Below the pieces are notes generated by a model, which saw nothing but the letters and a program-made list of their open reading frames with translations, had not been told where the DNA came from and ran no database searches. A stretch of 64,000 nucleotides of DNA, taken from NCBI GenBank assembly GCA_965112155.1, contig OZ218108.1. One strand, 5' to 3'. The DNA is from Podarcis liolepis (lineage: Eukaryota). The position numbers were made by a program, and so were the translations under genes. Shown piece after piece: positions 12,295 to 35,706 of the stretch. The first letter of the stretch is position 1; each line of letters opens with the position of its first letter.

Positions 12295-14257
12295 ATCTAA
12301 TCCATGGACATGGAGGCACAATGTGGACAATCCCAGTTCCTCAATACATTAGGATTGCCCAGTTACAGCTTCATCTGAGACACACCTTAATACTACTCAC
12401 ACATCAGATCACAGGCATTTTCTATCATTTTATGCTATTTGCTAATATTGTGCCACAGTTTGAGACTCAGATTGGACCATGCAGATTTATTAGCTCAAAA
12501 TTCATTAAGGACTTACTTTATAGGATATTCCATCCAAACCATTCATCCTTTCTGGCTTGTGTGCCTAATGAAACTGGCATACTACTATAGTAGGAGGCAC
12601 AGTGCCATACTAACAGATGGCCCTGATGGTAAACATGCCAATGAACCAGTATATGCATCACATATAAATATCAGGGCTAGACTACTCTAAAATAAATCCA
12701 ATAATTTATTTCTATACATTTCCATTACTTTTATATAGGCTATGTATGCCCAGTGTGCACTAAACTAAAGAATTCAATATATAAATTCTGTATATCAACA
12801 GAAGTTATTCAGTCTCTTTCAGCATTAAACTTAGGAATCAGTATTGTACTGAAACACCATCTTCAGTCCATTCTCAGCAAAGGAGTCATTTGCAAAACTC
12901 AAAGGCAGTTTGCTACCCTGCTGCATTTGCTAGTACACATGTACTCTGAAAAGGAAAAAGGCTCCAATAAATTACAATCACATTTTGTTTGGCAGGAATC
13001 TAGTCTAAAGATGCAAATTCATGAAGTTGAACACTATTCTTCTAAATTTTGCCATCTGTTGAAAAGTTCACATATTCTACCTACCACTATGCACTTTTCA
13101 TATAATATGCCTCCAAATTTTAACATTTGGTTAAAGATTTCATTTTTACTGTTGCTGTTAAGATGCAGTTTCCAAAGGTAAGGAAAAGAAAGGCTTTTAT
13201 AAAATTCACACATTTAAATATGACAGAACACATTTAATTTGGAATCAGAACAGTAACTGCTGGCAAGAATAAACACTCTTGTATGAGAAACATTCCAAAA
13301 TATCTGGAAAATCAGTTCCACCTGAAATCAGCTGAACATTAAAATGTTTTATACGTCACTTCCTAAAGATATTCCAATCAAATAAACTTTACGTGAAGGA
13401 TCAGTATGAGCTACTGACATCTGGATCTTTTATAAAGCTTGTGGTTCTTGGTTTAAATGGCCAGATTACATCTTGATTAAGGGAACTTCTATCAATACTA
13501 TTCAGACATTAAAACGAATTTTCAATTCTATCAAGAGATCTGAACCATTGCTTTCTCATCATATCACTCTACCCTCAGGTGAACAAGCCTTGCTATTCAT
13601 TTCTGTGTTCCTGGCATGGTTGGTCTAGTTCTAGCAATCAAAGTATTTGTTAGAAGTACTGCATACTGAATAGTTTGATGACGTTCTTCAACTCTGGTTC
13701 AAGTTATAGAAACACCCTTACTTTTCAATGCAATCCAATTCAATCATTCCACACTTATCTTCAAGGATGTAGGGCAGCAATTGAGAGCAATTGACAATTG
13801 ATGGCCTGTGGACATATTTATAATTTTGAGTGTATACCATGACATCACCTTCTCTGGATGCTTCTCCTGTCCACCCAGACAGAAAGTGTGCACACACTAC
13901 TTTGCTTTTCCCAAGGGGTATGGGTAAAAGTCAGATTCAGCAGAATTAAAACAGTTCCTCTTGGAGTTCCCCCAAAACAGCATCACTGATAGACAGCACA
14001 GAAAACAACCACTCTACAGATTTGGTGCTTGGATGGAATCTTGGATCCAATGATTTTTGCACAGGATGGCAACTAAACCACAACAAATTACCCAACATAT
14101 ATATACATGAACACAGAGGTGACCAATAATTTGATGACATTTTTAGGGGATCCCATGTAAAAATTACGAGTATCCATAACTTGGAACTGTATTTCTGCAC
14201 CATGGAAGCTAGGATGGTTAGAGGTTACCCAGTCAGTTAGTCCTAATTGCCTTAGGC

Positions 14258-14500
14258 CATGGGTAGGCAAACTAAGGCCTGGGGCTGGATCCAGCCCAAT
14301 CACCTTCTAAATCCAGCCCATGGGCGGTCCAGGAATCAGCGTGTTTCATGTGAGTAGAAGATGTCCTTTTATTTAAAATGCATCTCTGGGTTATTTGTGA
14401 GGAATTCGTTCATCCCCCCCCCAAAAAAAATAGTCTGGCCCCCCACAAGGTCTGAGGGACAGTAGACCAGCCCCCTGCTGAAAATGTTTTCTGACCCCTG
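14258..14500 (+). mobile_element. hAT MITE family A
   Basis: Same ends and body as the 7322 copy; perfect 8-bp TSD ccttaggc (14250-14257, 14501-14508). Confidence 0.88.
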
Positions 14501-14509
14501 CCTTAGGCC

Positions 14510-15300
14510 CTCCCCTCAACAGGCAGGTGTAGAGTTGTAGCCAATCTGAGCTGGGTGATGGACCTCACCCTACAACAGCAAATCCTTCCTGTTGAGTAGG
14601 AACTCATGAGTTTGCCATGAGTTCCATGAACAAGGCTCTCCTTGGTCAGAAGGGAGCTACTATGATAATCTCCCCTAGAGCGGATCTAACTCACCTGAAA
14701 ATCTCTGGATTAGGACCATAGGAGTAAAGGCATATAAAAGCCCCACCGAGCCACGTCAGGGTATCCATGCCCATTGCTTCTTGGGCCCTGAACCAGGAGA
14801 CCACCACCTTTCCATGTTCTGGACTAGAACAACGTCCACTTCTGGAAGGCCAAAGCAATCCACTATTTTCTAGAACATCTATGGATGAAGGATCCACTCT
14901 GTCTGCAGGTGGCTGACCCAATCTGCTCAAGTGTTGGGGGCACCCGCTAAGTGCTCTGCTGATAGGGATTCTAGATACTGTTCCACCCAGGAGAGGAGGC
15001 TGGTTGCCTCTTGCATGAGAGCCTGTGACTTGCTTTCACCTTCTTTACATATATATGCCTTGGTGGCAATGCTGTTAGAAAGGATCAGCCTGTGCTTGCC
15101 CTCCACCAGCCTCTCAGAGTGGAAGAGGGCCAGTCTGAGTGCTCCAAGTTCCAACCAACTTATGAGTTATTTGGCTTCCTCCTTGGATCAGGTTTCTTGG
15201 ACATACTGATCTTCTGTGTGGGGTCCACACACCAAGAGGGTCGCATCTGTCATTATCTGCACCCATGGCTGCGCCCTGAAGGAGTGTCCCCTTTCTAAAG
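14510..15300 (-). mobile_element. DIRS-like (tyrosine-recombinase) retrotransposon remnant, RNase H and downstream region
   Basis: ORF 14927-15154 (LELGALRLAL..RLILSNSIATKAYICKEG..LSAEHLAGAPN) resembles the DIRS1-type RNase H pattern (LELxAVxLAL..SDNxxxVAYINxQG..HLPGxxN); frameshifted and decayed. Boundaries approximate. Confidence 0.65.
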
Positions 15301-18300
15301 CCAGGGAAATCCACCACCTGAGGACCCTAATGGGCCTCTAGGAAGTGGGAGAACATGGGGACTGCAGGTTGGCCCCAGAGCCTGACCTAGCCAGGTGAGT
15401 CACTCTGGGGTAAATGGCAGCATCCGGGGGGGGGAGGCACGAGCAGTTGCCCATCCTTCCTTTCATGCTTACCAACACTTCTGGGAGCACTGCAGCTTCT
15501 AGGACAGGCCATTGCAGGTCCCCCATTACCTCTGTGGTCAAAGGACTCACTGTTGGGAACAGGGAGATCCCAGGTCCCCTTGCATGGGTGGTCTGGTTTC
15601 TCAGCCAATGAGTCTGCAGAGAGCTCCCCAATAGTAGTCAAATAACTGAGACTGAGCTATCAGCAATCTAAAATTAAGTTACAATAAGCATTTCCTTTTA
15701 AATTCTGTTTCACAATACAATCTAAAATTGCCTTCAAAGATCATAATTACTAAGGTGTGCTTTTAAAAAAAAAATCTTCTCTATAAACTCCAAAGTTTCA
15801 GAAGCAAATGTTTCACTTGCAACAGTGCCTCTTTGAAAATGCCAAATTGCAATGATACATTTTATTGGATATAAAGAAAGGAAACAACTAGATTACGAAC
15901 AACAAGCAACACAATTACGTTTTAACCACACTTCCCAATTTACAGAATGTAATGAAATCTTATTTGGTAATTAAATGCCAACTTAAACAAGATTGCCAAT
16001 ACAGATTACATAACAAATGAATTGTGAGACTGCATGTGCCTCCTGCTGTAAAAGCTCTTCAAGACCTTAGATTTACCTGCAAGATCTGCCAACTCAAAAT
16101 GGCATTTTTGAGAACTTTCAGTCTATACAATATTCCAATTCCATGTTCTTCAGTAATCAAGTTTATTAACGGCTCATCTCATCTCAATTTATCATATAAA
16201 CCATAGGGCCACATTAGATATTCTTCTTACAAAGTATTAAGGGCCAAACTAAATATAAAATTAACACAACTTGTTTGGAATGCCATGATTTTTTAAAGAA
16301 AATAAACAGCAGCTTTGGGGTAGTGGGGGAGAAAAATCAGGACCAAAACCAAAGCAGGGTTGTTTTTTAAAGCACTTCAATAAATTTGAACATGAACACA
16401 CATACACAAAGCTGCTTTCACTGGATGGCAGATTCTTTCTTGATGCAAATAGTAGCTGGGTGGGGAGATTTTTATCAGAACTACAGTGTGGAAGGAATAG
16501 GCTAGAAAACCCTCCCTCTTTGCTGCAATCCCAATTCTGACTTACTTCTCCCATATCTGCTATATAAAGTTAAAGAAGGAGGACACAGTGCTGTTTAACA
16601 AAGTGTGTCTAGCCCCAGGCCTACACTTCTGGATGGTCGGCAGCAAGATATCAAATTATGTTTTGGGAATTACATTAACTTACCGTACATTTATTAATTT
16701 TAATTTTTTTTACTGGTGTTAGGTATTTTACTAAACTGGACTTTTTAGCATTATGGCTGGTTCTGTTAGTGAATATTTTAGTGTTATTTTTTGTGTTTTG
16801 ACTTCTGTATATTTAGGGAGTGTTAGGATTCTCTAATAAAGAAACACCCAATTTGTGTTATTGGCAAATAAAATGTAAACCACAATACCTGTTCCCTAGT
16901 TAAAGTTAAGACACTGGTGCTGACACTACAAGATGAGCATCTCTTTGTTGTAAAAATAATTTCTCACTTTTATGGATACATGATTCAAAGTAGCTTGCCA
17001 TGCCACAGAAGACTGAAAATAGGCAGTACTATGTCTGAGAGGTAAAATAAATAATGGCACACAAATAGCATGCTGTAGGTAGTAGACTAGTTAGAAGTGA
17101 AAGCAGATTAGGGTTTATGTTTCCACTTCTGTGAAAGCAAGGTTCTGTGAACATGACACATTACTACATAAGACTTATTCCCAAGGCACATGTTCAGGTC
17201 TGTATGTGTAAAGCAGCAAAGGAAGGAACCCTATCAAAAGAGAAAGCTAACAAAATTACTCAATTACATGATTTAAATTAAGTATAAATAATTCTGTTCT
17301 ATTATACATCTAGGTTTATAAATGGTTTGAACTTCAACTTTAAAAAGTATTTTCTTCTGTTTTGTTTAAATAAATTAACAGCACTGACTAGCAACCTTCT
17401 TGAACTCAAAACCTTTCTAACTTACAATGTTTCAAGAGTACAGACTAATCACTCACTTGTACACACACATGCACACGAAGTAGTATTATCAAGCTATAAC
17501 CAGCAAAATTAGATATTCTACATGTGGCACTTGTTTTTACTGGAAAATGTATTGTGTTAATTCCCTTGAAAATATTGCAGACAAACCTGAAACACTGAAG
17601 TTACAAATAGCAGAATTTATGATTTATTAATATTAAGTCTTCTAAATAAAGGGTTCCCAGTACAATTTATTTCGATTTTAACATTTGTTAAAATAATGGA
17701 CACTTGAAGACCATTAAGAGGCTATCCAAGATCTCGTGGGAACAGAGCACCACATAATCAAATTTAAAAGGGGAGGAAGCATATTGCCACCTCCGCCCCA
17801 TCAACAAATATGAAATGTTACCAATATTGGCAAGCTGAAATGGCAATATAAAGAGTCCATGGGCCAGTATGAGCGGTAATATGACATAATGCCCCCTTCA
17901 TCAAGCATGAATCCAGTGTCTCCACTGTGGCCAACCCAACTTGGCTGAAGAATCCAAAAAAACCTTGTGATCCAATCCCACCCTCAACATAACTTCTGCC
18001 AGTGTCTCCCTGATTTCAAAACTATCAGTGTCTCCAGGAGCACAAGAGTTTGAATGTTTACACAGAAGGAAATCGCTACCAACTTCGCTGTGACTTACTC
18101 CCTCGTGCGTTTAGGATTGCAGCATAAAGTGCATAAAACTGAAAGGAGGGGTCCCTGAGGCGTTTCTCATGCTGCTCTCAGCGGGCACTTCTCCTTACAG
18201 TCATTTATTACTTCCCTTGCATTGATATCCTGTATACAACTTTTTACCACGTTAGTAGGAAGAATTCGGACTTCTCCCTTACTCCACAATTCAAGGCAGA

Positions 18301-18479
18301 AAAAGAAAATCCGAAGCAGCCGTGTTGATCTGCAAGGAAAAACAACTGAGCTCTGAAAGCAACCGCAAGGCAGTAACTTTATTAGGGACCAACTCCCAAC
18401 GTCACACAAAGTCGCAGAGCAACTCATAATGGCACAACCCCGCTTTGCAGTAAGTTTCACAAAGAACCGTATTCCGGAC

Positions 18480-19520
18480 CCCGAAGTTGTTAATAGGATT
18501 TGGGGTGGGAAGGCGGCTGGGAAACGAGGGGAAGAGAGACCCACGGGCGGCTGAGCGTCTGGTCTCCTCGAAGGAAGCAGCGCCTGCACTTACTTCCCTG
18601 AGGAGAGGAAGCCCAGCCCCCGGCCGCCCCAGCCGCGCCTCACTCCGCCTCCGGCCGTTCCTTACTTACTTCTTGGTGTCGCTGCTGAAGAGCCCGAAGG
18701 CCGTCGAGGCAGAGGAGGCGGCGGCGGCGGTGGGCGTCGCTTCCTGGCCCACCTCGGGCTGAGCGTCCCCGGCCTGCTCGTTGTAGCCGACATTGTTGGT
18801 CGACATGCCCGCGCGCCGTTACTACTACTACTACTAGCACCACAACTACTCCCCCCGCCTCCGGTTCCCTCGCTATCCGACTCTTCCCCGGAAGCTGAAG
18901 GAAGAGCGGCTGCCGGAGGATAGTCACGTGGTGGCCGAGAGGGGCGGGGAAGAGCGGCCAAGGGGAACGTTCTCCGGCCTGCCTCCAGGCGCCGCCGTTG
19001 CCACGGCAACGAGGCCCTTCACGCCCGAAATCCTCCGGCTCGCAGTCACGAGAAAAACCTCCTGCCCGCGACTTCCCGAAGGCGCGCCTTACACCCCCCC
19101 CACCCCACCGCAAGTCACGAGGACACGGAGAAGCCGTTGAGCAATGCCACGTCACCCGCTAAGCGGTTGGTCTCGTGCGCGTACTTGGCGCCACGTATGC
19201 GAAGCTAAGCCTTCCTTACTGCCGGGGCTGGACCACCCTCGAGGCACCTCCGGCGGCAGAATCCCATTGCTTCTCCTCACTTCTCTAGTGATGTGGGGGC
19301 TGGAAAAGTGAGGAGAAGCGGAAGCAGCAGCAGATTCTGGTGGGAGGGTCCCCCTACCATGGGAGAAGCGGCTTCTGGCGAGATTTCACCAAAACCTGGA
19401 AGTCAGCAAAGGAGGGCAAAAGGTGCCCCCGGTGGCGCTGGAGAAGTTATCTGCTACTGCCAGAGATCTGGGGAGAAGCGGCGTCGTACGGCAGTAGGCC
19501 CACCACTACCACCACTGTCC
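18480..19520 (-). promoter_or_regulatory. AP3B1 CpG-island promoter and 5' UTR
   Basis: High GC and CpG density; ETS-like ccggaag (18888-18894), E-box gtcacgtg (18923-18930), RFX X-box gttgccacggcaac (18997-19010), TGACGTGGC on the minus strand (19146-19154). Confidence 0.8.
18670..18806 (-). CDS. AP3B1: AP3B1 coding exon 1 (MSTNNVGYNEQAGDAQPEVGQEATPTAAAASSASTAFGLFSSDTK|K)
   Basis: ATG at 18806 inside a CpG island; similar to human MSSNSFPYNEQ..GQEAT..AFGLFSSDLKK; GTAAGT donor in phase 2. This frame is absent from the ORF track because it is shorter than 60 aa. Confidence 0.95.
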
Positions 19521-19624
19521 CTCATGATTCAGGAGTGAGTCTTAAGGACCAAATTGAGAGGACTCAAGGTCCCTGTTCCTTTCCTAGGTGATCAAGCTAC
19601 CCTAAGCTGAGACTCCATGGGAAC

Positions 19625-19650
19625 CACACACACACACACACACACACACA
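19625..19650. repeat. (CA)13 microsatellite
   Basis: Seen directly. Confidence 0.95.
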
Positions 19651-19889
19651 GCAACTAGAGGGTTGTTGAGAAGGCCAATACATTTTAAATGGACAAAGGA
19701 GGGTTGGACAGCTTTCCAAAAATTGTACTGTTATTCCATACTACAAAACCATACTAAAAAAAACCCAAACCCTAAGCACTGCTATACTCAGGAACATAAG
19801 CATCAGCAGAAGAGTCACTGTTTCCTGTACCTGGACAAGCTGGGAGGGGAGAAGAAATCACTGTTCAGAAAAACCCAAAATTACATATA

Positions 19890-20115
19890 CAGTGGCACCT
19901 CTGGTTACGCACTTAATTCGTTCCGGAGGTCCGTTCTTAACCTGAAACTGTTCTTAACCTGAAGCACCACTTTAGCTAATGGGGCCTGCCGCTGCTGCCG
20001 CGCCGCCAGAGCACGATTTCTGTTCTCATCCTGAAGCAAAGTTCTTAATCCGAGATACTATTTCTGGGTTAGCGGAGTCTGTAACCTGAAGCGTATGTAA
20101 CCCAAGGTACCACTG
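19890..20115. mobile_element. Tc1/mariner (Tigger/pogo-like) MITE, family C
   Basis: TIRs cagtgg(c/t)acct.. / ..aggtaccactg with TA on both sides; sister copies at 25677 and 35453. Confidence 0.88.
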
Positions 20116-20189
20116 TAAATGGTGGGCACAATTCAAGCATCTGCAAACACCATCAAACACATACCTACCTGGCATAGGAGACACCTTGA

Positions 20190-20440
20190 TCAGCAAGGGA
20201 AACACCTTGGAGGAGGTTTTCCCAGGGTGAGGCTCATCCATTGCACCAGGCAAAAATATTTCTCTATAACAAGGCCTTTGGCTGATTAAACGATAGGCTT
20301 TTTAATGTATTTGGGGGGGTGGGTATTGGTTTGTTGGTTTTGTTATGTATTTTGTGTTCTCATTTTGTATCTTTATGTTGTGAACTGCTCTGTGATCTTT
20401 GGATGAAGGGCTGTATACGGTTTAAATAAATAGATAAATA
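20190..20440 (+). mobile_element. L2-like LINE 3' UTR fragment
   Basis: T-rich tract followed by tgtgaactgc..tgtgatc..gatgaagggc and a (taaa)n tail. Confidence 0.5.
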
Positions 20441-20688
20441 CTGTGAAACTTCTGTTCACCAATTTTCATTTATCACGTTCTGTTGTTTTACTGTTGTTTT
20501 ATTAAGTTTATGTGGGGGGGGGGGGGTTTCTTGCAAACCATCCTGCAATAATTTATTTGCTGAATGCTCAGGTTGTATATCTTAACAACTGTCATTTTAC
20601 TGACTGCAATATGGGGCGGGGGAGAGGGGCAGTTGGCCTTATTATGTAGGTACCAGCATACTTTTTAGTGTTAACTGTTACAGTATTG

Positions 20689-20877
20689 GTAGGTAGCCGT
20701 GTTGGTCTGCCATAGTCAAAATAAAAAAATTTCTTCCAGTAGCACCTTAAAGACCAACTAAGTTAGTTCTTGGTATGAGCTTTTCGTATCTGAAGAAGTG
20801 TGCATGCACACAAAAGCTCATACCAAGAACTAACTTAGTTGGTCTTTAAGGTGCTACTGGAAGGAATTTTTTTATTT
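20689..20877. mobile_element. Penelope-like retroelement inverted pLTR remnant with hammerhead-ribozyme motif
   Basis: gtagccgtgttggtctg start; 68-bp inverted arms (20717-20784, 20812-20879); 13-bp flanking direct repeat tgttacagtattg; CTGAAGA-stem-AAAA core in the loop. Confidence 0.75.
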
Positions 20878-21071
20878 TGTTACAGTATTGTCACTGCATA
20901 TTTGTTTGGTGCCCTCTTGTGGTTCAGATTGTGAATTACAAAGTTAACCTTAGTTGTAATTTTACTACAGTATGTAAAGGAAGTGGCCGCCTGATCTTAT
21001 TCATGTTGACTTATAAGTAAGCCCCACTAAGTTAATTTGAAGTGTGTGTGTGTGTCTCACACAAACTTGCA

Positions 21072-21107
21072 ATCTGAAGAAGTGTGCATGCACACGAAAG
21101 CTCATAC
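21072..21107 (+). ncRNA. Minimal type I hammerhead ribozyme motif (intact core, weak helix I)
   Basis: CUGAAGA-A-GUGUG(CAUG)CACAC-GAAA-GC-UC-AUAC; palindromic AGCU helix III typical of dimer-forming PLE hammerheads. Confidence 0.6.
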
Positions 21108-21161
21108 CAAGAACTAACTTAGTTGGTCTTTAAGGTGCTACTGGAAGGAATGTTTTTATTT
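21074..21161 (+). mobile_element. Penelope-like pLTR fragment starting exactly at a hammerhead core
   Basis: Nearly identical to the right arm of the 20689 element; 11-bp direct repeat aaacttgcaat at 21063-21073 and 21162-21172. Confidence 0.75.
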
Positions 21162-24100
21162 AAACTTGCAATTGTTATCCATATATTTTTTGTTTCATTA
21201 ATTATGCAGCAGAAAAAGGGTCACTTCCGGTCAGTATCCAGTATCGCTTCTGAAATATAATTGACCTTCACACTGGCATTGCAGGTTCCATTTCCCCTAA
21301 ATTTAATATTTATTCTTCCCGGTTAGCAAGAAATCAAACTTTATTAGTGGAACATTTGCACTTCAGTTGCACCGGATTACTAGGTTAGAGCTTTAAAATT
21401 TCTTATCATTTGTTCAGTGGTTCTCTGCTAATTAACCACAGAATCCCCTTGGGGCACTCCAGTAAGAGAGTGGAATCCAGGAGTATTTGCAAACTATAAA
21501 CCTTCTTCAGTGGGGAGTGCAACCCCTCCCAGAACAGTTTGTCTGCCGAATTCTAGGACATGGGAATCACCCACCCACATCCATCTTATCAGGACTCAGC
21601 TGGGGGGCAGGGCGGTTGCACGCATGCAGCCCATCACAGTTCCCAGGCACAGGATCCAACACCTTCATAGCCTTTCCTGATTCAAATGTAATAGACAGCT
21701 AGAGCTGCATTATTAATGTGCTGGTGACACAGTGCTCCAGATCCTTAGATGACTGCTTCCAATGGTTTCATACAAATAAATGTTAAATAGCATAGGACCC
21801 CACAGCCCCAAAACTATGAGCCAAGTAACAGTGCCCTAATGCTACTTTCTGGCAATGATCCTTCAGGTAGGAACAGAGCTCTGAAAAACAGTATCTCAGC
21901 TTCAACCTTCCTGAGTCATTCCCGAAGAGTACTGTACTGGGCAGCTTCCAACACCACCCTTTCAGCCATCTTGCCCAGGAAGTGAAGATTTAGAGTCTGA
22001 GCAGATCCAGAGATGGCCTCTTCAGGAGTCACCACATCCTGCCTCTTTCAGGGTAGTGGGCATAAGTCCCACATGTAGTGCTGTGTTGACCATTCCCTGG
22101 ACCTATTCAGTCAATCACCTCCTGGAGTTTATCAGCCATGATGGACAGAAATAGAGAGAGAGCATGCTGCTACCCTGACTTCTACAAGTGTCCTGCAGGC
22201 TGCAACTAGTTGGTGCTTGAAGGCCCTCCAATGGACCTGCACTAATTGTGACATAAAGTTTGGCACAGAGCCAAGTGATTTTACCCTTTGCAAATCTCTT
22301 AACAGCAGGCTTTTGAGTGGTACCTATCAGCTAATTTACCATACTAAAAAGCTCTGCTGGACAATTCACTAAAAACACAATCGAAACAGAGAAGTATGCG
22401 CTCTTTTTGCCACTGTCACATGCATTGTGGTTGTACTTGTGTTTGATCAAATTCATATTGGGACTTATCCCACCTGTGCTCCAATCATCAGCCAGCCCAC
22501 TTCATTGTTGCTCAGGGAGCATATACCCAAAGGTATCTTTCTGAGTATAATGTTAATACCATGCCTCTGTGAAATAAAAGCTCACTGAGCTATCAATGCA
22601 TATCTGAAGTGGAAAAATATCAAAAGGTTGGTTAATAGAACAGTTATGGTGTTAAAACATGGTATAAAATATATATCTTAGGAGCACTAGCTGTTTACAT
22701 GTACAGATTCTATGCATTTGTTTCTGATAAAGCATCAGAAATGTATTATGGTATTCATAGGAACCATGCCTGTAGAGATGGAGAGTAGGACACATTTTTT
22801 CTATTTCATTATTGTAGAAAGGGCCATCTATTGATCAGTTATTTACTCTTGCTAGATATTGAAAACACTTTCTAATAAATTCTAATTAAATCTTTTTCTT
22901 AATTAAATCTTAATTTTCTAATTAAATCTTTATCGACCTGTCTCCTGGTTGCAAATAGTGGCTTCTTGTACTGTGGTATAAATGTAAAGCATTTCACTCG
23001 CAGCCTGATCGTGTGCTGAGTTAGGTGCATCTCAGTCCATTGGTTTCCATGGGTATGAGGTGCTAAGTCTGCCCAGGATGGGGCTGTCAGTCTGTTGCCA
23101 TGTCTAGCACTTTGAGCCCTCGAGGAAATGGCAATGCACAAAAGGGACATGGGTCAAGAGTTTGACAGCAGCATAGATTCATAATTGGCTTTACTTGTTT
23201 ATTATGCAGTGCAATTATAATCTGAGCTGTCTCTTGTGGAATTCTTACTGAGAGGGAAATTATGTAGAAGATTTTGCAGCATTAATAAAGAGTAGCATGA
23301 TTCATTTGTTTAAGATCAGACAATTAAAAAAGCAACAATAGAAATGTCAACAGAACAACAAAATGTGTAATCTTGTATGGGTGTTTGCCTTGGAAACAGA
23401 CAAAGGCTTTATTGGCATGCTTGAATAATCCATAGTATCTAGATATTTTCCCTTGACCTAATTCACATAATCCAAATCAAAAGTGTCATCATATATTTAC
23501 AATAGAGGGAAGCTTAGCTCTGCCTGAGCCAGGTTTAGACAATACGTGTTGGTTTCAGAAGAAAAGATAGTAGGTTAACCTCTACTTGCTAAGCTATCAC
23601 TGTGTCCCTTCTTCCTTCTGAGCTGCGAAAACTTCAGTTTGCTTTGCAAAAAAGAACACTGGGGACATATACAATACTGTTTGTATAGTAATCTGATTAG
23701 AAATGTATTGTTTTCAACAAGCAGGAATGTGTGTAAGCATCCTGGAGCAAATTCAACAACCAGTTCCCTAGAGTCAAAGCAGCATTCAAGACAAAGAACG
23801 ATTTTATTTTTCAAAAAGCCTATGGTTACAATCCTGTGCCCACCTTGGAATTTCTAAGTAAACATGCATTGGATTGGGGTGTCTCTGAACAATCTATGAG
23901 TCAAAGTGTACCAGCTGAAGGGACACAGGTTTTTTTTAACAAAAGTTCCACTACAGCAGCAGAACATAAGATCTTCTGGTATATCCATCATGGCAGCAGT
24001 ATAACACCTCAGATACACTGGTGAAACACTCTGCTGGCAGACTTGTCAGTGGAATGATTAAAATGTGGTGGGGTCACAGACAACCCACAAACATGCTTAC

Positions 24101-25676
24101 ATCATATCCTATACCTTTTCAATTCATGACCACATGCTCCGCTTATATGATATTGCAGACATTAATATTGTGCAGCCTGAAGTGACTGGATGCATAAAAA
24201 CTGACTCCTTTTTGAATAAAAATTGTCTAGACCCATTTGTTTGATTCGAAACTTTACTTGCAGAAATTTCTTCAAAACAGAACAAAAACATCAAAGATAT
24301 ATCCAAAAAAATTCATAAAACATATGGTTATCCAAGCACAGGCTCAACATCTTTTTAGAAATAAAATAACTTATCAAAGCTGAAAAACACAGTTCTCCCC
24401 CTCACAGGCTTCATTAGTCTGAACTCCAGCTCTTAAGGCTGTTGAGCTCCTGGAGAGGCATCTTACTTCCACAGAGCTTCAGCCACAACCCTTCCAAGAC
24501 AGAGAAATTTGCAATTCACTACCTCTTGTGTTATCTAAGGTTAAACACAACAATAACAATTATCAACCCATCAAGGAGCTCAGAGTCCTATTCTTGACTT
24601 CAATATAGCTCCATGGAAAATCACCATGTTAAAGCCTTCAGTAATACACATTGAGGCATTCTCTATTTCAGTGTCAATTAAAAAATTACACTTAACATAT
24701 ATTTATCATAAACACCTAGGTGGTCGCTATTGGAAAAAGGATGCTAGACTAGAAGCATCCTCCTAATTCAACCAGATTATTTATTTCATTCACAAGCAAG
24801 GGAGAATTCTGTTTGGTGAACGCAGAAAATGGCACAAGGTACAACACATTTCAGATGTGTTGCAGGGCAGGAAAAAGTAAGATTAGTTTTCTAACTAAAA
24901 CATGAATGCTAAGGGTAACTACAAACTGCCTGCTGCGTGATGGCCAATCAAACTACCTGCATGGTAAACTGGCTGCTTGTACCGTTCCTCAGATGTGTCA
25001 GTGTGACACCATTTCACCTCCTAGCTTGAAACTGCATACAACCAGCTCCCTCAGATCAGTTGCCCTATTGTGAGTCTACAAGCAGCCTCTTGGCTCTCTG
25101 TGGTAACCCAGTAATGAAGAGGAAAAAAGGTGCAGAAAGGATACAGTCCAGAAACCAATAACATTTTGCAGAGAGTGAAACACTTAACTTATTTGCCCTA
25201 GTGTAAAATCTTTTCTAATATTTGATCATTCATAAATGGTTTCTGGATGGAATGTAACAAATTGTCTGAGAATCAGATCTGTAAGCATTTGCTACACTCA
25301 AGTGCGCTTGTATATGAACGAGGTGAAAAGGCCAATAAATTATTTTCTTGGCAGATCAAGGATGAGGAATTTGAGAGATCTATTTTGGAAACAACACTAG
25401 ATACACAGATGGTAATTTCAGACTAGCAGAAAATTAATCAGGCTTTTTTGTCACAGAGTCCTCGTACAGTTTGCCTCAGTGCAGTGTCCATACAGGGCTC
25501 AGTTGTGGAAGCTTGAAGCTTTTAGACATGCAAGTTGGTGCTTTTGTAATGCAGTTTCTCTTCTCGGCTTTGAAAGGAAATAGAAATTTATCTGTTCTAA
25601 AGGTCAGAGAGCTCTTCCAAAGCTTTTGCTTTCATAGGTGATGCGAGGGGAAAACTGACTAGCACAAAACCACATA

Positions 25677-25917
25677 CAGTGGTACCTCGGGTTACATACG
25701 CTTCAGGTTACATACGCTTCAGGTTACAGACTCCGCTAACCCAGAAATAGTACCTCGGGTTAAGAACTTTGCTTCAGGATGAGAACAGAAATTGTACTCT
25801 GGCGGTGCGACAGCAGCAGGAGGCCCCATTAGCTAAAATGGAGCTTCAGGTTAAAACAGTTTCTGGTTAAGCACAGACCTCTGGAATGAATTAGGTACGT
25901 AACCAGAGGTACCACTG
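25677..25917. mobile_element. Tc1/mariner MITE family C
   Basis: cagtggtacctc..gaggtaccactg, TA on both sides; internal duplication of ggttacatacgcttca; opposite orientation to the 19890 and 35453 copies. Confidence 0.88.
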
Positions 25918-26154
25918 TAGTAAGAAAAGTATTGTATGTAAACCATAAGTATTTTTAAACTACAAAAAATAGGAAACATATTAATGCAGAGATTGACCCT
26001 CAATGTGAGTGTCTTATTTCACCAGTCACAAAGTAAATTAAACTTTTAGATTTTTTCACAAGGACTCCTAATGCAAATGCACACAAGAATGCACACACAC
26101 TGGAAAAGATTAGCCATCTTGAATGTGTAACGGTGAGAATGCTGCCATCTACGC

Positions 26155-26290
26155 CAGGCATCCCCAACCTTCGACCCTCCAGGTGTTTTGGACTACAATT
26201 CCCATCATCCCTGACCACTGGTCCTGTTAGCTAGGAATCATGGGAGTTGTAGGCCAAAACATCTGGAAGGCCACAGGTTGGGGATGCCTG
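26155..26290. mobile_element. Palindromic hAT MITE family B
   Basis: TIR caggcatccccaacct / aggttggggatgcctg; 8-bp TSD atcta(c/g)gc. Confidence 0.85.
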
Positions 26291-26416
26291 ATCTAGGCTG
26301 TCAAGGTCAAAGTGTTACGTAATGTCATCTAAACTATCAAAGACGGGGGGGCAGAGAGAAACAAGAGAAAATGGGAAAAGACTAAGTGCTCTTTCACACA
26401 TGAAGCCAATGTGAAG

Positions 26417-26585
26417 AGGCATAGCTCAGTGACAGAGCATCTGCTTTGCATGCAGAAGATCCCTGTTCAATCTCCAGGTAGGTCTGAAAATGTCCCCTAT
26501 CTGAAATCCATTAGAGCCACCACTACCAGGCAGTGTGGACAAATACTGAGCTGAATGGACCAATGATCTGAGTTCCTTTGTTCCA
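26417..26585 (+). mobile_element. tRNA(Ala-like)-derived SINE, degraded
   Basis: tagctcagtg..agagcatctgctttgcatgcagaag..gttcaatc head plus a body shared with the minus-strand copy at about 56720-56870. Confidence 0.65.
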
Positions 26586-27637
26586 ATATTCCAAACTTAA
26601 CCAAATGTGAGACTGCAGTCATATATCAGCTTTGTAGAACAATATCACTGATGTGTTTTTCACAGAAGCAAACTCCTCTTTTCTGACTGATGTTAACAGA
26701 AAATCCACTTTATCATTCTTGGGTTGCAGGTGTGTTTACTCTGATGACATGCAGTAGAAGTATGGTGAAACTAATGTATCAGACAAAATCTTAGCTTGAA
26801 ATTCTTTGCCACAATTGTGCTTTTGACTCTGTATTAATCTGAACAGATCAGGTTTACTAAATGTCTTTTCCAAAGGGAAGACTTCAGAGTAACTAAAACA
26901 CATTCTAAAGATTTAGTAACAAAGATACTTCAGCAGCCTGAAGTCAAATGGCAGGTTGAACTCATGTGAAGCTATTAACTACTCCAATTATCCCAAACAA
27001 ACAGGTTTAAAACCCCTGTGGATTTCAGTAGCACTGCTACTTGGTTAACAGAGTGCCTGGAAGTCACCAGAACAGCTACTTCCCACTGTTCCTGATTTAC
27101 TGCTGTAGTTTGCAATCCAGGTCACAGGGTACAGTTTGGGGAACAGTATTATGATATTTAGAGTTTCAATTTCTTATTTCACGATGTAATAGTTTACTAT
27201 ATATTTAACAAACAGTACACACTGTTTTATTGTAAATAGAACTTCTAAGTGGTTTGCAAAAATAAACATTAAAATTTTCGGTTAAAAAAAACCAGGAACA
27301 AAAAAAATCAAAATAGAATTACAAGCAAGTTTAAGATAAAAACAAATAAAAACAGATGTTGACTTCCATGTGCTGGGAAAGGCTTGCCTGAATTTTTCTT
27401 TCTGTAATTCCAACTGTGAGCACCAGAGGTAGATGTTTTCACAGAAAACATTAAAATTAACTTCACTTAATAATCACTGCTTACTGCCACTATTAACATT
27501 TCCCAGTTTACACTTTATGAACAGGAATATAGTCTGGCATTTACCTCTAAAACTGAAATCCCATATACTGTATTCACTAAACCAGGAATAGACAAGTGTA
27601 ACATAAGATTGTATTATTAAGTCCTTAATTTAGAAAC

Positions 27638-27758
27638 ATAGAATTGTATCGTTGGAAGAGACCAATCTCCTGCAATGCTCGAAGTTTTTGCCCAACATGG
27701 GGTTTGAACCCATGATCCTGAGATTAAGAGTCTCATGCTCTAATAACTGAGCTATCCC
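27638..27758 (-). mobile_element. tRNA-Lys(CTT)-derived SINE with CR1-type tail
   Basis: Reverse complement of 27689-27758 resembles tRNA-Lys(CTT), followed by a ..cttccaac..tacaattctatg tail; same family as 52042-52190. Confidence 0.7.
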
Positions 27759-27942
27759 AACAATTAGTGCTCTTAGTGCTACATGACTACCATAGCCATC
27801 GCCTATAAAGAGCAAAAAACTAACTATAGCAGGAATGCAATCCCCAACACATAACTGCAGACATGGTTATTTTTATTGAGCTTTTCTGCTACACACAAAA
27901 AATGAAGAGAGTGAGGCCAGTGTAACAAGATGAATCTGCATA

Positions 27943-28657
27943 CCGTATTTTTCGCCCTATAGGACGCACCGGCCCATAGGATGCACCTAGTTTTTTTGGG
28001 GGGAAATCAAGGGAATTTTTTTTTATTTCCCCCCCAGGTTTGCGCAACCATCCCAAGCTAGAAGAGGGAGACGGAGCGCTCCGTCTCCCTCTTCTGCCTT
28101 CAGGGACAGCTTGCCCCGCTATCCCGCGAGCTTGTGGGGCTGGCGGGGGGGAGAAGCAGGCTTGCTCCCCCCCCCCGCCAGCCTCCAGATCAGGTCGGGG
28201 AATAGCGGGGTGGTGGCGCTCTGCCATCCCCCTATCCCCCGAGCTTGTGGGGCTGGCAGGGGGGAGAAGCAAGCTTGCTTCTCCCCCTCCCCCCAGCCTC
28301 CAGATCAGGTCGGGGAATAGCGGGGTGGCGGCGCTCCGCCACCCCCTTATCCCCCAAGCTTGTGGGGCTCGCGGGGGGGGGAGGAGCGGGGTGGTGGCGC
28401 TGCGCCTCCCCGCTGTCCCCAGCTTTTGGGTGCAGGCTGCTGCCCGCAAGCCTTGCGAGCCCGCGGGACATCCCGCCGGGCTTGCAAGACTTGCGGATAG
28501 CTTCCTGAAGCCTGGAGAGCGAGAGGGGTCAGTGCGCACCGACCCCTCTCGCTCTCCAGGCTTCAGCAAAAGCCTGCATTCGCCCCATAGGACGCACACA
28601 CATTTCCCCTTCATTTTTGGAGGGGAAAAAGTGCGTCCTATAGGGCGAAAAATACGG
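27943..28657. mobile_element. 715-bp TA-flanked non-autonomous Tc1/mariner-superfamily (Tc2/pogo-like) element with GC-rich internal repeats
   Basis: Perfect 27-bp TIR ccgtatttttcgccctataggacgcac; TA at 27941-27942 and 28658-28659; internal ~115-120-bp tandem units and palindromes. Confidence 0.88.
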
Positions 28658-29399
28658 TAAATGCAGTTGTTGGCTGCTAGATGGGACTTGTGAGAGTTGC
28701 AACCTACAATACGTGGTAGCGCTTTTACCAATAAATAGTTTATCCTAATGTTCAATAGACATCTAGCCTCCTGTAACTTGAGCTCATTAGATCTGGGCTC
28801 TCATTACAACAGCCTGTCGTGGCTCCCACTCATTGAAGAACTCAGGTTGCAGTTTCTATCCACAGCTTCAACGCTCAAATCAGCACACTGTACAGTATAG
28901 GTAAATTGAAGTTCTGGGGCACAGCATACATGCACATGGCTGCACAAGCAAAGACAGAGACCGAGCAATGACACGGCCCCTGAAACACTGTTCCAAGGGA
29001 AAGGGGTGGGCACAACAAAGTGCAGCAACTGGTTCTGCTTCTTAGACTGGGCGTACAACCATCTGCTCACGCCTGCACTGGTGTCTCCATGACAGGCAAT
29101 GGAGGAAGTGTTACTGCCTCATCAAAAGCTGATGGAACAGGCGGGGCAACAACCTCCTCTGGAGAGGTGGGACTGCACTTGGTTTCTGACAGCTCCAGAG
29201 GTGGAGCTGTGGTGCGATAGGCGAGCCAGAACCAGCTGCTGGCAGCTACAGTGGTGGAGCCTGTGCCTTGTACTGTGGGGATTGATGGGGAGATGGGACA
29301 AAGCGAGGGAAATTCCACATACACCCACCCACAAGATCGTCCCCAGGATCTCCTAACCCAGATAGAAAGCTTCCCAGCCCACTGGATCCCTCCCCAGTG

Positions 29400-29795
29400 T
29401 CATCTATTAATGCAGCTTAGAGTGGCATTAGAGATTCCCCCCTACTCGCTCTACATTGCTGACCCAGGTTCTGCTTGTGATCAACTGCAATCTAGATAGC
29501 TCTTTCACAGGTACTACTGCTAGGCCAGGAATTTCTCCATCCCATGCCTGTGCATTTTTGTCTTCTGCCTAAATGGAGAGTTTTGCAGTTGTTCCTGTGG
29601 AATTTCATTTTGTTAGTTTCATCACAGTTTTCCATTCCATCAAGCTTGATGAGGACTTTGAGGAGTTTTGCAACCAGCTATGAATCCTCATGACAGTATT
29701 ATAATCGAGCCAGCATTTAGCCAGTTTGCTAATCAAAAGATCATGGGGAACTTTGTCAAATGTTCTGCTGAAATCAAGATAAATTACATCCACAG
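29400..29795 (-). mobile_element. CR1 LINE reverse-transcriptase fragments
   Basis: DVIYLDFSRTFDKVPHDLLISKL (RT motif) and a downstream IAVDHKQNLGQQC resembling CR1 IVVDHKLNMSQQC; internally deleted. Confidence 0.75.
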
Positions 29796-30469
29796 CAGAG
29801 AGAGCACTATTCTATGACACTATTCTATGAATGTTTACTTGAAGGGAAGTCATCTGTCTCTTCCACATATTTTGCCACTTCATAGCCTTGCAATCTGCCT
29901 AATATAACCTATTATTTATTGGCCTTATCATCTGCTCAATATAAAATAGCTGAAATCTTCTCCTAGACCAGATAAACTAAATAGTTCAGTTTGCGTCATG
30001 TGGCGTACCATGAAACATTCTTACAGCTATTTTCTGCATTTTATTTTTCCTTACTAGCTTTTATTGTACTCAAATAAAAGAAGTGGAAAATGTAGTAGAG
30101 TCAGCCAGTAAAACTTATGCTTCTGTTCAAAACAAGCACATGGTTGGAAGAGTTTAATTTCACCAGCTACATTTTATAATATTTATGCAGTTCTTTGTTT
30201 GCTGCATTTCATGTGCAAAAACAAATACCTAAGTAGCTTTTACTAACAGGAAAAGAGAGCAAATGAGGATAGACATAAATGACACATTTCACCAGGTTTA
30301 ATGGGGTGAGCAATCCTAAAAACAAGGTTATTTTCTTCTGACCCTCCATTCCCAATTTGGGATGTAGATGTAATGTGGTCCACTCATATAAGGCAGCCAC
30401 ATGGGTTCCACTTCACTGGCATACCTGAGTGTTGTCACACACAATAAAGTACCTTCTTAGAACTTAGAT

Positions 30470-32030: not shown

Positions 32031-34430
32031 CAGGGCCTTATAATCTAGGGGGGCCTTGGCCTCTTGCAAAATAAAAAAATTAAACAGGCAGATTTTACTA
32101 TATAGGCCCAGTTGCTTACTAATATTAAACATGTGGTGTATGAATCTATGACTGTATAACAGTTACACAAGTGCATACTCTACTGTTTAGTAAATTTCAC
32201 AGAGGCTTTAAAACTACTCAGAATCAAATGATAAAGCAATATAAGTGTTCTCATCACTGCATTTTATATCACTGTGAATCACAATATTTAATTTTGACTT
32301 TTTGTGAAAAAAATGATGAGTAAGCGCTATGAAAGTGCTGCTAGTAAATGAAAGCAAAAAACAAACAAACAAACAAACAAACAAAACAGAAGGAAATACT
32401 CAAATGTTTAAAGCCAATCATGTCATATGGCTTTGTACACCAAGCAGAAACAGTCCTACATAATCCGTCATATAGAACATCCATGTTTACAAACAAAAGA
32501 AAATAAAGTAGACTACACTGAGTAGTCTGAGCAGACTGAATAACAACCAGTTCATATACAGAACACAGCCTCCCAAGACCTTCAAGGAGAATTGTTGTCG
32601 GTAACAACCACTACAAGTACAGAAACAACTGGAGAAAGTGACAACGAAGTGATAGGACCTATGACCCAAGAATTAACACAAGGTGCTGAAGGAACATACC
32701 ATGAGATGGTTGCAGTTCAAGCTCTATACTGTCTTAAAGTATTGGAAAATAAAGCAAATTATCTGAGTGAAAACCCTTACATTGCACACACAAAAATACC
32801 AATAGTTCATGCTACTAGTGATTTTAGAGACAATAATGTCATAGGTTTATGGTCCACATTAAATAACAAGGAAATATCATTCTGGGATGAGAAAGGTCTA
32901 TCGGAATGTCAGCACTGGGATGGACGTTTTACCACTTTGAAGCAAACATCTAAAAACCAAGTCTGGATCTGTTCAAAAAATTATTCTATTCCACCAAAGT
33001 AAATGGATAAATCTACCCTCAAGAATGGCTAGTGTATTCCCCCACGAAAGGAAGTGTCAAAGGTTTTGTGCACAAACCTTTCTCTAACCAAACTACCTCA
33101 ACTACAACTTTAGGTTCTACTGGATTTGATGATTGGCATCACACTTATCTTGTTCAAACCCATGGAAACTCTAAAAATCATACAAACTCTCTGCTAACAT
33201 ACTTAACAAGAAAGTGTGCTCAAACACTCACATAAAAACTCAAAGAACCAATCAAAGCAGGATTACTGGAGCTGCCTGTACTTCAGCGAGTTATTGCAGT
33301 GATTTCCCTTTTGGGGGAACGTGGCTTGGCATTTCATGGAAATGATGAAACATTTGGTTCACCAGACAATGGTAACTTTCTCAGATTGCTTGAATTAATT
33401 GCAAAATTCGATCATTTCCTGTGTGCTCACATAAATCAGTATGGAAGTAAAGGCTCTGGTCAGCTATCATACTTCTCCAAAACCATATGTGAATAGGTTA
33501 TCCAGCTGATGGCTTATACAGTTCAAGAAGCAATACTGAGCAACATCAAACAGGCAGGTTATTTTAGTTTATCTGTTGATTCAAACCCTGATGTTTCCCA
33601 TGTTGATCAACTTACTGTCATGGTTAGATATGTTTCTCCTAGCGATGGATCACCAGCTGAATGCTTTCTGAGTTTTTTGAACTGAAATACCACACCAGTG
33701 AAAGTATGGTTGAGCCGACACTGAACTACTTCACTGAACATATGATTTCAGTACATATGATTTCAGTAAATCATATGACAATGCAGCTAATATGACCGGA
33801 AAATATAACAGCATTCCACAAAATATTCTGGAAAGGAACAAGCTTGCAAAGTTTATTCCATTGCACTGGACATTCCCTAAATCGAGTTGGACAAACCACA
33901 GCTGACTTGTCCCTGGATGCAGTGAATTTTTTTGCCGTAATAAATGAGCTTTATTGTTTTTTCTCATCTTCTGCAAAAATATCAGCCTCTTGAGTCAAAA
34001 GTTTTTTCTCATCTTCTGCAAAAATATCAGCCTCTTGAGTCAAAAGTTCCTAAACATTTATCATATGCAAGAAGGGAGGCTAACACCAAAGCTACTGCAG
34101 CTATTAGTGAAAGTTATGCTTACTTACATTGTTGAAGCCCTCAGTCATATTTACTGTGATGAATCTGAAAAAGGAGATGCTAGACGACAGGCTGAAAATC
34201 TGCAAAAAATGGAAGGATTTTAATTAATTTTCATGTTTTAGTTTTGGACACACTTTCATAAACTTAGAAAGGCACTCCAAAGTTCACAAATTTCATTAAG
34301 CACGTGTGCAAATATTTGCTGCTCACTACTGCAGTTCATATCAAACAGTTGGGTTAATTTTGATGAAATTGAACAGCAAGCAAAATTCACTTTACCAGAG
34401 TACAAAACTGTCAAAACAAAGCAGACTATT
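32031..34430 (+). mobile_element. Decayed autonomous hAT DNA transposon (DUF4371/ZMYM1-like transposase pseudogene)
   Basis: Fragments MMSKRYESAASK*, GERGLAFHGNDE..NGNFLRLLELIAKFD, YFSLSVDSNPDVSHVDQL and SYDNAANMTG are in the canonical order but broken by stops and frameshifts. Ends approximate. Confidence 0.8.
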
Positions 34431-34742: not shown

Positions 34743-35311
34743 CAAGGGCAAAGTAATTCTTAAAATATAATCTGAAAAACAATTACAAATAGGGTTAAAA
34801 TGGGGGGGGGGATATATGCAGCTCAAACCTATCCACATTTTACTCAGGAGTCATACTGAACTAAGTGATCCCTGAAATAAAGGAGACTCTTTTGAAACAG
34901 TCATCCTGCAAAATTGTTGTCTACTTTTTAAACACTTGTTTTCTCATGCACTATCTTATTTGATCCACAAGGAATCCAGTTGTATTTATTCCTAAGCAAT
35001 ATAAGACCAGAGCCTGAAATTCATAGGACATCCAGAAAGGTTGTGGAGATAACTTCTTAAACTAATGATTAAAACACAAACACCATGATGGGTGGTATTC
35101 AACAGAGTAGACCCACTGAAATTTATGAACATGACTAAGATCCATTGATTTCAACAGGTTTAATGTGAGTGGAACTTAGCTGAATACCACTCATTTCAAT
35201 TCAGTATCACCATTGAAGTGTTTGTGAACAGCACTCAGGGAATCCCCATGTGTTACAAATAGAAAAAAGGAAGAACATCTGCCTCAGAACATCAGGAATA
35301 ACTTTCTGACA

Positions 35312-35706
35312 AGATTCAGGTAGGTAGCCATGTTGGTCTGACACAGTCGAAATAAATAAAAAAATTGTCCAGTAGCACCTTAGAGACCAACTAAGTATGT
35401 CCTGGATATAAGCTTTCGTGTGCATGCACACTTCTTCAGAAAGAAGCTTATACAGTGGTACCTCGGGTTAAGTACTTAATTCGTTCCGGAGGTCCGTACT
35501 TAACCTGAAACTGTTCTTAACCTGAAGCACCACTTTAGCTAATGAGGCCTCCCACTGCGGCCGCGGCGCCGGAGCCCGATTTCTGTTCTCATCCTAAAGC
35601 AAAGTTCTTAATCTGAAGCACTTTTTCTGGGTTAGCGGAGTATGTAACCTGAAGCGTATGTAACCTGAGGTACCACTGTACACGAAAGCTACTGGCCATT
35701 TTTTTT
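35312..35706. mobile_element. Penelope-like inverted pLTR remnant with minus-strand hammerhead core, interrupted by a MITE
   Basis: ggtaggtagccatgttggtctg..ccagtagcaccttagagaccaactaag matches the 20689 element; 14-bp TSD ataactttctgaca at 35298-35311 and 35707-35720. Confidence 0.75.
35453..35678. mobile_element. Tc1/mariner MITE family C
   Basis: cagtggtacctc..gaggtaccactg; TA at 35451-35452 and 35679-35680. Confidence 0.88.

Follow-up and report, generated by a model that had tools for sequence, protein, structure and literature searches.

Introduction

Minimal hammerhead ribozymes are known from the pLTRs of Penelope-like elements (PLEs), turtle and snakes included, in the available text of Cervera and De la Pena 2014 (PMC4209133). 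Biochemical data exist for Poseidon_Ac (PAc) of Anolis carolinensis. In the accessible part of that report (Frangieh et al. 2024, PMC11167929), reverse transcription begins in vitro at two internal sites that define a tail, PAc cleaves and extends both strands, an element with a dead ribozyme inserts equally, the hammerhead cuts only when protein is added, and RNA-seq shows no ends at the cut. A CX2-5CxxC linker motif marks Neptune and Nematis (PMC8557442), a pLTR promoter has been described for the D. virilis Penelope (PMC2377424), and a rotifer element bears a putative TATA box and initiator (PMC3846280), each as given in the portions of these papers on which we draw.

Here, we analyzed two hammerhead motifs in a 64,000-nucleotide stretch of Podarcis liolepis DNA (the window). 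We consider it likely that each motif is the minimal hammerhead of a separate short Penelope insertion, that both insertions arose independently as copies of the first 90–125 bases of an uncut RNA, and that the pair, as folding predicts, does not cleave.

Results

Two minimal hammerheads and an overlooked antisense arm

Family positions are counted from the C of CUGA (C3) as +1, the base before it being 0; the cut falls between +30 and +31. The locus comprises the following features.

20676–20688, no strand: left target-site duplication of insertion 1, 13 bp, identical to 20878–20890
20690–20787, minus strand: antisense arm of insertion 1, family ~+21 to +118 (aligned to the natural copy L018)
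20786–20879, plus strand: sense arm of insertion 1, family −3 to ~+90, short end
20786–20823, plus strand: minimal hammerhead copy 1, 4-bp helix I, G12A at 20812, cut position after C20819
20878–20890, no strand: right target-site duplication of insertion 1, 13 bp
21063–21073, no strand: left target-site duplication of insertion 2, 11 bp, its final 2 bases common to the element
21072–21161, plus strand: insertion 2, single sense arm, family −1 to ~+88
21072–21107, plus strand: minimal hammerhead copy 2, intact core, 2-bp helix I, cut position after C21103
21162–21172, no strand: right target-site duplication of insertion 2, 11 bp

A sequence-only reading had placed both motifs on the plus strand with a spacing of 284 nt, and its motif coordinates were confirmed on the letters. 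Its account of the two cores also held. Copy 1 has a 4-bp helix I (G20786–U20789 with 20820–20823), C3 at 20790, helix II at 20798–20811, C17 at 20819 and an A at the G12 position (20812); copy 2 has C3 at 21074, an intact G12 (21096), C17 at 21103 and a helix I of 2 bp only (21072–21073). The core boxes CUGANGA, GAAA and UH are all present in copy 2, and copy 1 deviates from them by G12A. Both copies have an unpaired base between 9 and 10.1 (A20797 and A21081), a G10.1–C11.1 pair (G20798–C20811 and G21082–C21095) and an intact AGCU palindrome at 15.2–16.2 without loop 3 (20815–20818 and 21099–21102). The core boxes, the extra base, the G10.1–C11.1 pair, the loop-less palindrome and a 4-bp helix I are likewise those described for the minimal hammerheads of metazoan PLEs in the available text of PMC4209133, so that the earlier assignment to a minimal type I hammerhead of a Penelope-like element agrees with the sequence features. 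The exact motif of this family had no match in that text.

The two copies form a 90-nt direct repeat with 98% identity and a spacing of 284, and the 29-nt core, allowing up to 3 mismatches, matched the window three times, compared with 0 matches in 100 shuffles. The description of copy 1 had missed a fold-back arm: 20690–20787 runs antisense, is 99% complementary over 68 nt to 20812–20879, and represents the long "tail" end, including the first codons of the ORF. The Infernal-type model search that had been proposed was run against Rfam on 19000–23000; at E ≤ 10 it returned 12 matches with no hammerhead model among them, which would fit a motif without helix III. Its top matches, hairpin-type microRNA models below the gathering score, were rejected as being caused by the inverted repeat.

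Independence and age of the insertions

The flanking direct repeats that had been noted for each copy proved to be target-site duplications of 13 bp and 11 bp, and 182 nt of host DNA separates the insertions. DNA contigs from four of four runs of relatives join 20675 to 20878, that is, they hold one target-site copy only. For related organisms B, C and E, a single contig spans both sites with contiguous coordinates (3/3); therefore, both insertions are absent there. For organism A, the closest sample, a contig joins 20675 to 20878 and copy 1 is absent, and a 74-nt contig matches 21024–21097 without difference with 24 letters on the element side (the criterion was 31), so copy 2 is likely present. 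Accordingly, copy 2 is probably older than copy 1.

Copies 1 and 2 were thus inserted independently, each with its own target duplication. The proposal that a family had inserted twice in one spot stands as regards the two insertions, with their own duplications and empty sites, and fails as regards a family of very short elements. Among 13,000–30,000 randomly placed copies, 32–172 neighbors within 300 nt are expected genome-wide, so one such pair requires no special cause. The pair represents a known type of Penelope hammerhead and is itself ordinary.

Other features of the window

A third family copy (core 35411–35439, element 35310–35440, minus strand) belongs to an older subfamily with a long tail; it has U at the cut position and ~85% identity downstream, and another repeat lies directly upstream. 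By eye, a degenerate stretch at 18313–18460 (minus strand) has an end resembling the Penelope family tail and is possibly an older Penelope remnant. A short element at 19890–20121 has 25-nt terminal inverted repeats and internal 17-nt repeats, and similar sequence recurs beside several Penelope stubs in the retrieved loci. At 20161–20445 (plus strand), the 5′ ~85 nt of U1 snRNA (Rfam U1, 35 bits, E 2.2e-6) is fused to the 3′ end of a high-copy repeat (3,287 candidates). Of the 40 best matches in the genome, this locus alone includes the U1 part, so it looks like a single U1-retroelement chimera rather than a family.

A GC-rich island at 18500–19500 contains a likely first coding exon of 46 codons with a GT donor (18670–18807, minus strand), ~1.9 kb from copy 1. 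For a host gene, Pfam gave no match above the cut-off on 46 of the longer window ORFs, and the Atlas search gave only leads below 0.9. An open frame of 152 codons at 32544–33002 (plus strand) has a protein-like composition, and the Pfam and Atlas searches gave it no assignment.

The stubs are pieces of the end repeat of a 3-kb Penelope element

In the genome surveyed (1.57 Gb, 290 contigs), the count that had been suggested gave 12,908 exact matches to the 29-nt core, compared with 0 for a reversed control. In contrast to the variable minimal hammerhead families in the available text of PMC4209133, this family is far more uniform, with 12,908 identical cores. The G12A variant of the core has 1,045 further exact copies, the change sitting at a CpG. 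Helix I is 4 bp long in 141 of 155 canonical motif matches from the retrieved loci, a count in which overlapping loci recur.

A link to an ORF with reverse transcriptase (RT) and GIY-YIG domains, another check that had been called for, was found in tandem arrays (L061 and L063) with a 3,008-bp unit, in which an intact 910-aa ORF lies between two identical cores. The ORF contains RVT_1 (441–586, E 1.3e-11) and GIY-YIG (808–860, E 2.1e-5), both exceeding the Pfam cut-off; a PDB search with it gave 0 matches at E ≤ 0.01. The identical core on each side of the ORF places the hammerhead in the pLTR, the site also reported in the accessible text of PMC4209133, where copies are, as here, mostly single or in close opposite-strand pairs. 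The element shows the traits of endonuclease-bearing PLEs: tandem units forming pLTRs, inverted 5′ arms and a one-sided tail. Family copies that extend upstream enter the GIY-YIG coding end, and the stubs match the end repeat of intact elements nearly base for base. The two stubs are therefore a piece of the end repeat of an autonomous element and no separate mini-element; the notion of very short ribozyme-bearing retroelements does not hold for stubs that derive from a 3-kb autonomous element and grade into longer copies.

The translations have CX4CxxC in the linker, upstream of the GIY-YIG domain, and by this motif, which also occurs in Nematis, the element would be Neptune-type. As in the Neptune-clade inverted-pLTR insertions of PMC8557442 and PMC3846280, in their accessible text, there is a head-to-head 5′-truncated arm, a one-sided tail of 30–40 bp and a short target duplication, together with a TATA box and initiator-like element in the pLTR and the CX2-5CxxC linker. 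Unlike those insertions, both arms here are often shorter than 130 nt and contain at most the first ORF codons. The intact 910-aa ORFs of L061 and L063 are nearly identical, and their 3,008-bp units are arrayed both in tandem and in inverted orientation. Judging from its genomic copies, the family appears young and may still be active.

Ends cluster just before the core and are rare at the cut

We surveyed the ends of the first 100 of 17,188 matches to a downstream 22-mer, which represent 73 insertions in the first 4.25 Mb of one contig. The 5′ ends fell at −10 to +3 in 46 of 100 arms (35 of 73 insertions), most commonly at −5 (12/100), −3 (7/100) and −7 (6/100), with the initiator-like A at −6 accounting for 1/100. 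Only 2/100 ended at −31 to −11; 29/100 reached still further upstream, and 16/100 extended at least 200 nt. Downstream, 13/100 ended at +4 to +22, including 12 inverted arms, whose junctions are blurred there by the palindrome of helix II; 4/100 ended at +28 to +34, 6/100 at +35 to +47, and 0/100 exactly around the cut (+29 to +32). The 3′ ends form two groups, +79 to +95 (50/100) and +119 or beyond (48/100, many of which, scored as +119, may extend to ~+126, where the reference differs), with 2 shorter. A similar pair of neighboring 3′ end points, ~35 nt from each other, delimits the tail of PAc in the available text of PMC11167929.

Head-to-head pairs combined one short and one long arm in 23 of 26 cases, and ends and inversion points varied from copy to copy. 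Copy 1, with its long antisense arm and its short sense arm from −3, and copy 2, with a short arm from −1, are typical of the family. The junction at CUGA, which had been read as a peculiarity of copy 2, falls in the main 5′-end cluster.

Genome-wide counts of exact 22-mers gave 17,188 (+47), 16,363 (+31), 15,627 (+24, spanning the cut) and 4,053 (−31), so that 4.5% of matches were lost across the cut (base variants at C17 included) compared with 74% across the 5′-end cluster and predicted start. A 22-mer at −3 (13,170 matches) was excluded from this comparison because it also counts older subfamilies. When four non-family bases were demanded before a given position, junctions numbered 1,014 at −5 (older subfamilies and GT slips included), 47 at the cut (+31) and 13 at the control position +35. 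Of 41 distinct contexts at +31, 29 were inverted, many folded on the self-complementary AT at +31/+32; ~6 were solo stubs, one with a cleanly abutting duplication, compared with 2 of 11 solo at the control. The small excess at the cut, measured against one control position, may record some cleavage.

Among contexts that reach upstream, 41 of 49 young ones and 10 of 13 others contain a TATA-like box 36 nt ahead of C3; the end repeat has an initiator-like word with its A at −6, and the 5′-end cluster lies ~30 nt behind the TATA box. Alternatively, the cluster could mark a hot spot where RT stalls or switches template on meeting the hammerhead fold, or it could reflect RNA processing at the AG immediately ahead of helix I. 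Ends that peak at −5 and −3 rather than at a single base, the pyrimidine run and AG ahead of helix I, and a D. virilis intron that ends at the 5′ end of helix I (in the accessible text of PMC4209133) speak for such an origin. We nevertheless find it unlikely. Structural arrest should give ends 3′ of the fold (+23 to +34), where only 4/100 lie; the target duplication of solo stubs mostly abuts the 5′ end, so no foreign exon precedes the stubs, nor is there a shared one between duplication and stub; and the TATA spacing agrees with a start at the cluster. A splice-acceptor origin of the 5′ ends was also weighed and placed low.

It is more doubtful still that the stubs propagate themselves, through copying of their own short RNA, as a non-autonomous family of the SINE or retrozyme type. 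Short copies are very numerous, and animal non-LTR retrozymes, whose short type I hammerhead sequences are related to Penelope pLTRs, derive from Penelope end repeats in the available text of bioRxiv 10.64898/2026.07.22.740005. However, the upstream TATA region is missing from the stubs, whose sequence is almost exactly that of the end repeat of intact elements. Ends and inversion points vary from one copy to the next, ends seldom fall at the cut, and of 73 clusters only 1 was a same-strand pair and none a head-to-tail array. In contrast to the retrozymes described there, the insertions here are separate, form no head-to-tail array and do not end at the cut.

RNA reads from a related organism

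In four RNA runs of organism E (6–12% of each sampled), 759–1,426 reads were placed on the element. These reads, obtained with a method other than 5′-end mapping, showed no pile of ends at the predicted start or the cut. ORF depth was 0–8, and 83–90% of placed reads continued into other sequence. The reads come mostly from copies inside other transcripts, and their loose ends repeat the junctions −2, −3, −5, +83 and +119. Two single-cell RNA runs of organism E contained a joint of ~+186 to ~−5 (7 and 12 reads), found at L063:4775–4966; it corresponds to a head-to-tail 191-nt unit, either a genomic tandem or a circle, and L063 has no GT donor there.

The G12A change

G12A may already have been in the template RNA of copy 1, whose antisense arm also reads four A's, but a one-base slip could account for that reading. 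Among 20 G12A loci examined, 5 had an inverted arm bearing the normal G, and in one pair (2 loci) both arms were changed, so that ordinary decay at the CpG is explanation enough. The first 100 G12A matches included 5 close opposite-strand pairs with the change in both arms, which exceeds the expectation of independent decay at 7.5% in a comparison that leaves copy age uncontrolled; a shared template or conversion between the arms is possible.

The pair is predicted not to cleave

G12 is a catalytic base of the hammerhead. In the double-hammerhead model of Forster from 1988, each core reportedly cuts the site of its partner. The intact copy 2 core would thus face C20819, with a helix I of 2 bp in the modeled dimer, and C21103 would face the G12A core of copy 1, which reverses the earlier prediction of a cut after C21103. 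In the folded RNA of 20640–21220, the antisense arm pairs the copy 1 cut site with a probability of 0.66 and the copy 2 cut site with 0.34, the pairs of dimer helices III and I have a probability of at most 0.0002 in the ensemble, and forcing the dimer raises the energy by 43 kcal/mol relative to the best fold, or by 24 kcal/mol once the antisense arm is removed; these energies leave out tertiary core contacts and protein help. By this model the 68-bp antisense arm should trap either cut site and the pair should not cleave, in line with the doubts already voiced about its activity. No RNA datasets covering 19700–22700 were listed.

That the pair is a cis double hammerhead on a plus-strand read-through, in which copy 2 supplies the core, C20819 is the cut site, and a 4-bp AGCU helix III and the 2-bp helix I hold the dimer together, is very improbable: the copies share a strand at 284 nt, both AGCU palindromes are intact and minimal-hammerhead dimers gave some, if low, in vitro cleavage (PMC4209133, available text), but the dimer is strongly disfavored in the fold, G12A affects one of the two cores, relatives lack this recent pair, and neighbors within 300 nt are expected by chance.

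Discussion

Taken together, the internal-start behavior of PAc, the promoters known from pLTRs and the end clusters of this family suggest that the stubs are run-off copies of an uncut RNA leader, single or twin-primed. On this model of uncut templates, transcription of the element would begin from a TATA/initiator-like promoter within the end repeat, at a putative start ~6 nt before CUGA. The RT and GIY-YIG protein would nick the target DNA, copying would start inside the RNA at ~+85 to +92 or +119 to +126, and the RT would run off the 5′ end of the RNA. One primed strand would give a solo stub such as copy 2; two primed strands, one per site, would give a head-to-head fold-back such as copy 1. 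The ribozyme would be a passenger in stub formation.

The resemblance to PAc extends, within the accessible text of PMC11167929, to a tail that lies within the ORF start and to cut RNA that shows no sign of being the usual template. The two differ in that the PAc ORF starts at stem II, whereas here it runs from +93, its first ATG, downstream of the ribozyme and inside the tail. They also differ in the kind of evidence, biochemical for PAc and genomic for the present element with its Neptune-type linker.

A further reading, which we offer tentatively and hold to be somewhat less probable than its opposite, is that the ~16,000 arms constitute a fossil 5′-end map. The RNA would then start 3–7 bases before the core, at most ~1% of templates would have begun at the cut, the excess at the cut site would reflect occasional cleavage in vivo, and the hammerhead would regulate the mRNA leader in the manner of a switch instead of producing the transposition template. 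A literature search, with figures and some supplements outside its reach, did not find the start-site reading stated for a Neptune element.

The available texts of PMC4209133 and PMC11167929 leave open whether Penelope hammerheads cleave in vivo and which RNA they act on. This young family, whose near-identical copies number in the thousands and which retains intact masters, supplies a genomic bound on this question, with few ends at the cut and many at the likely start, and offers a Neptune-type element that would be suited to an assay of the PAc type.
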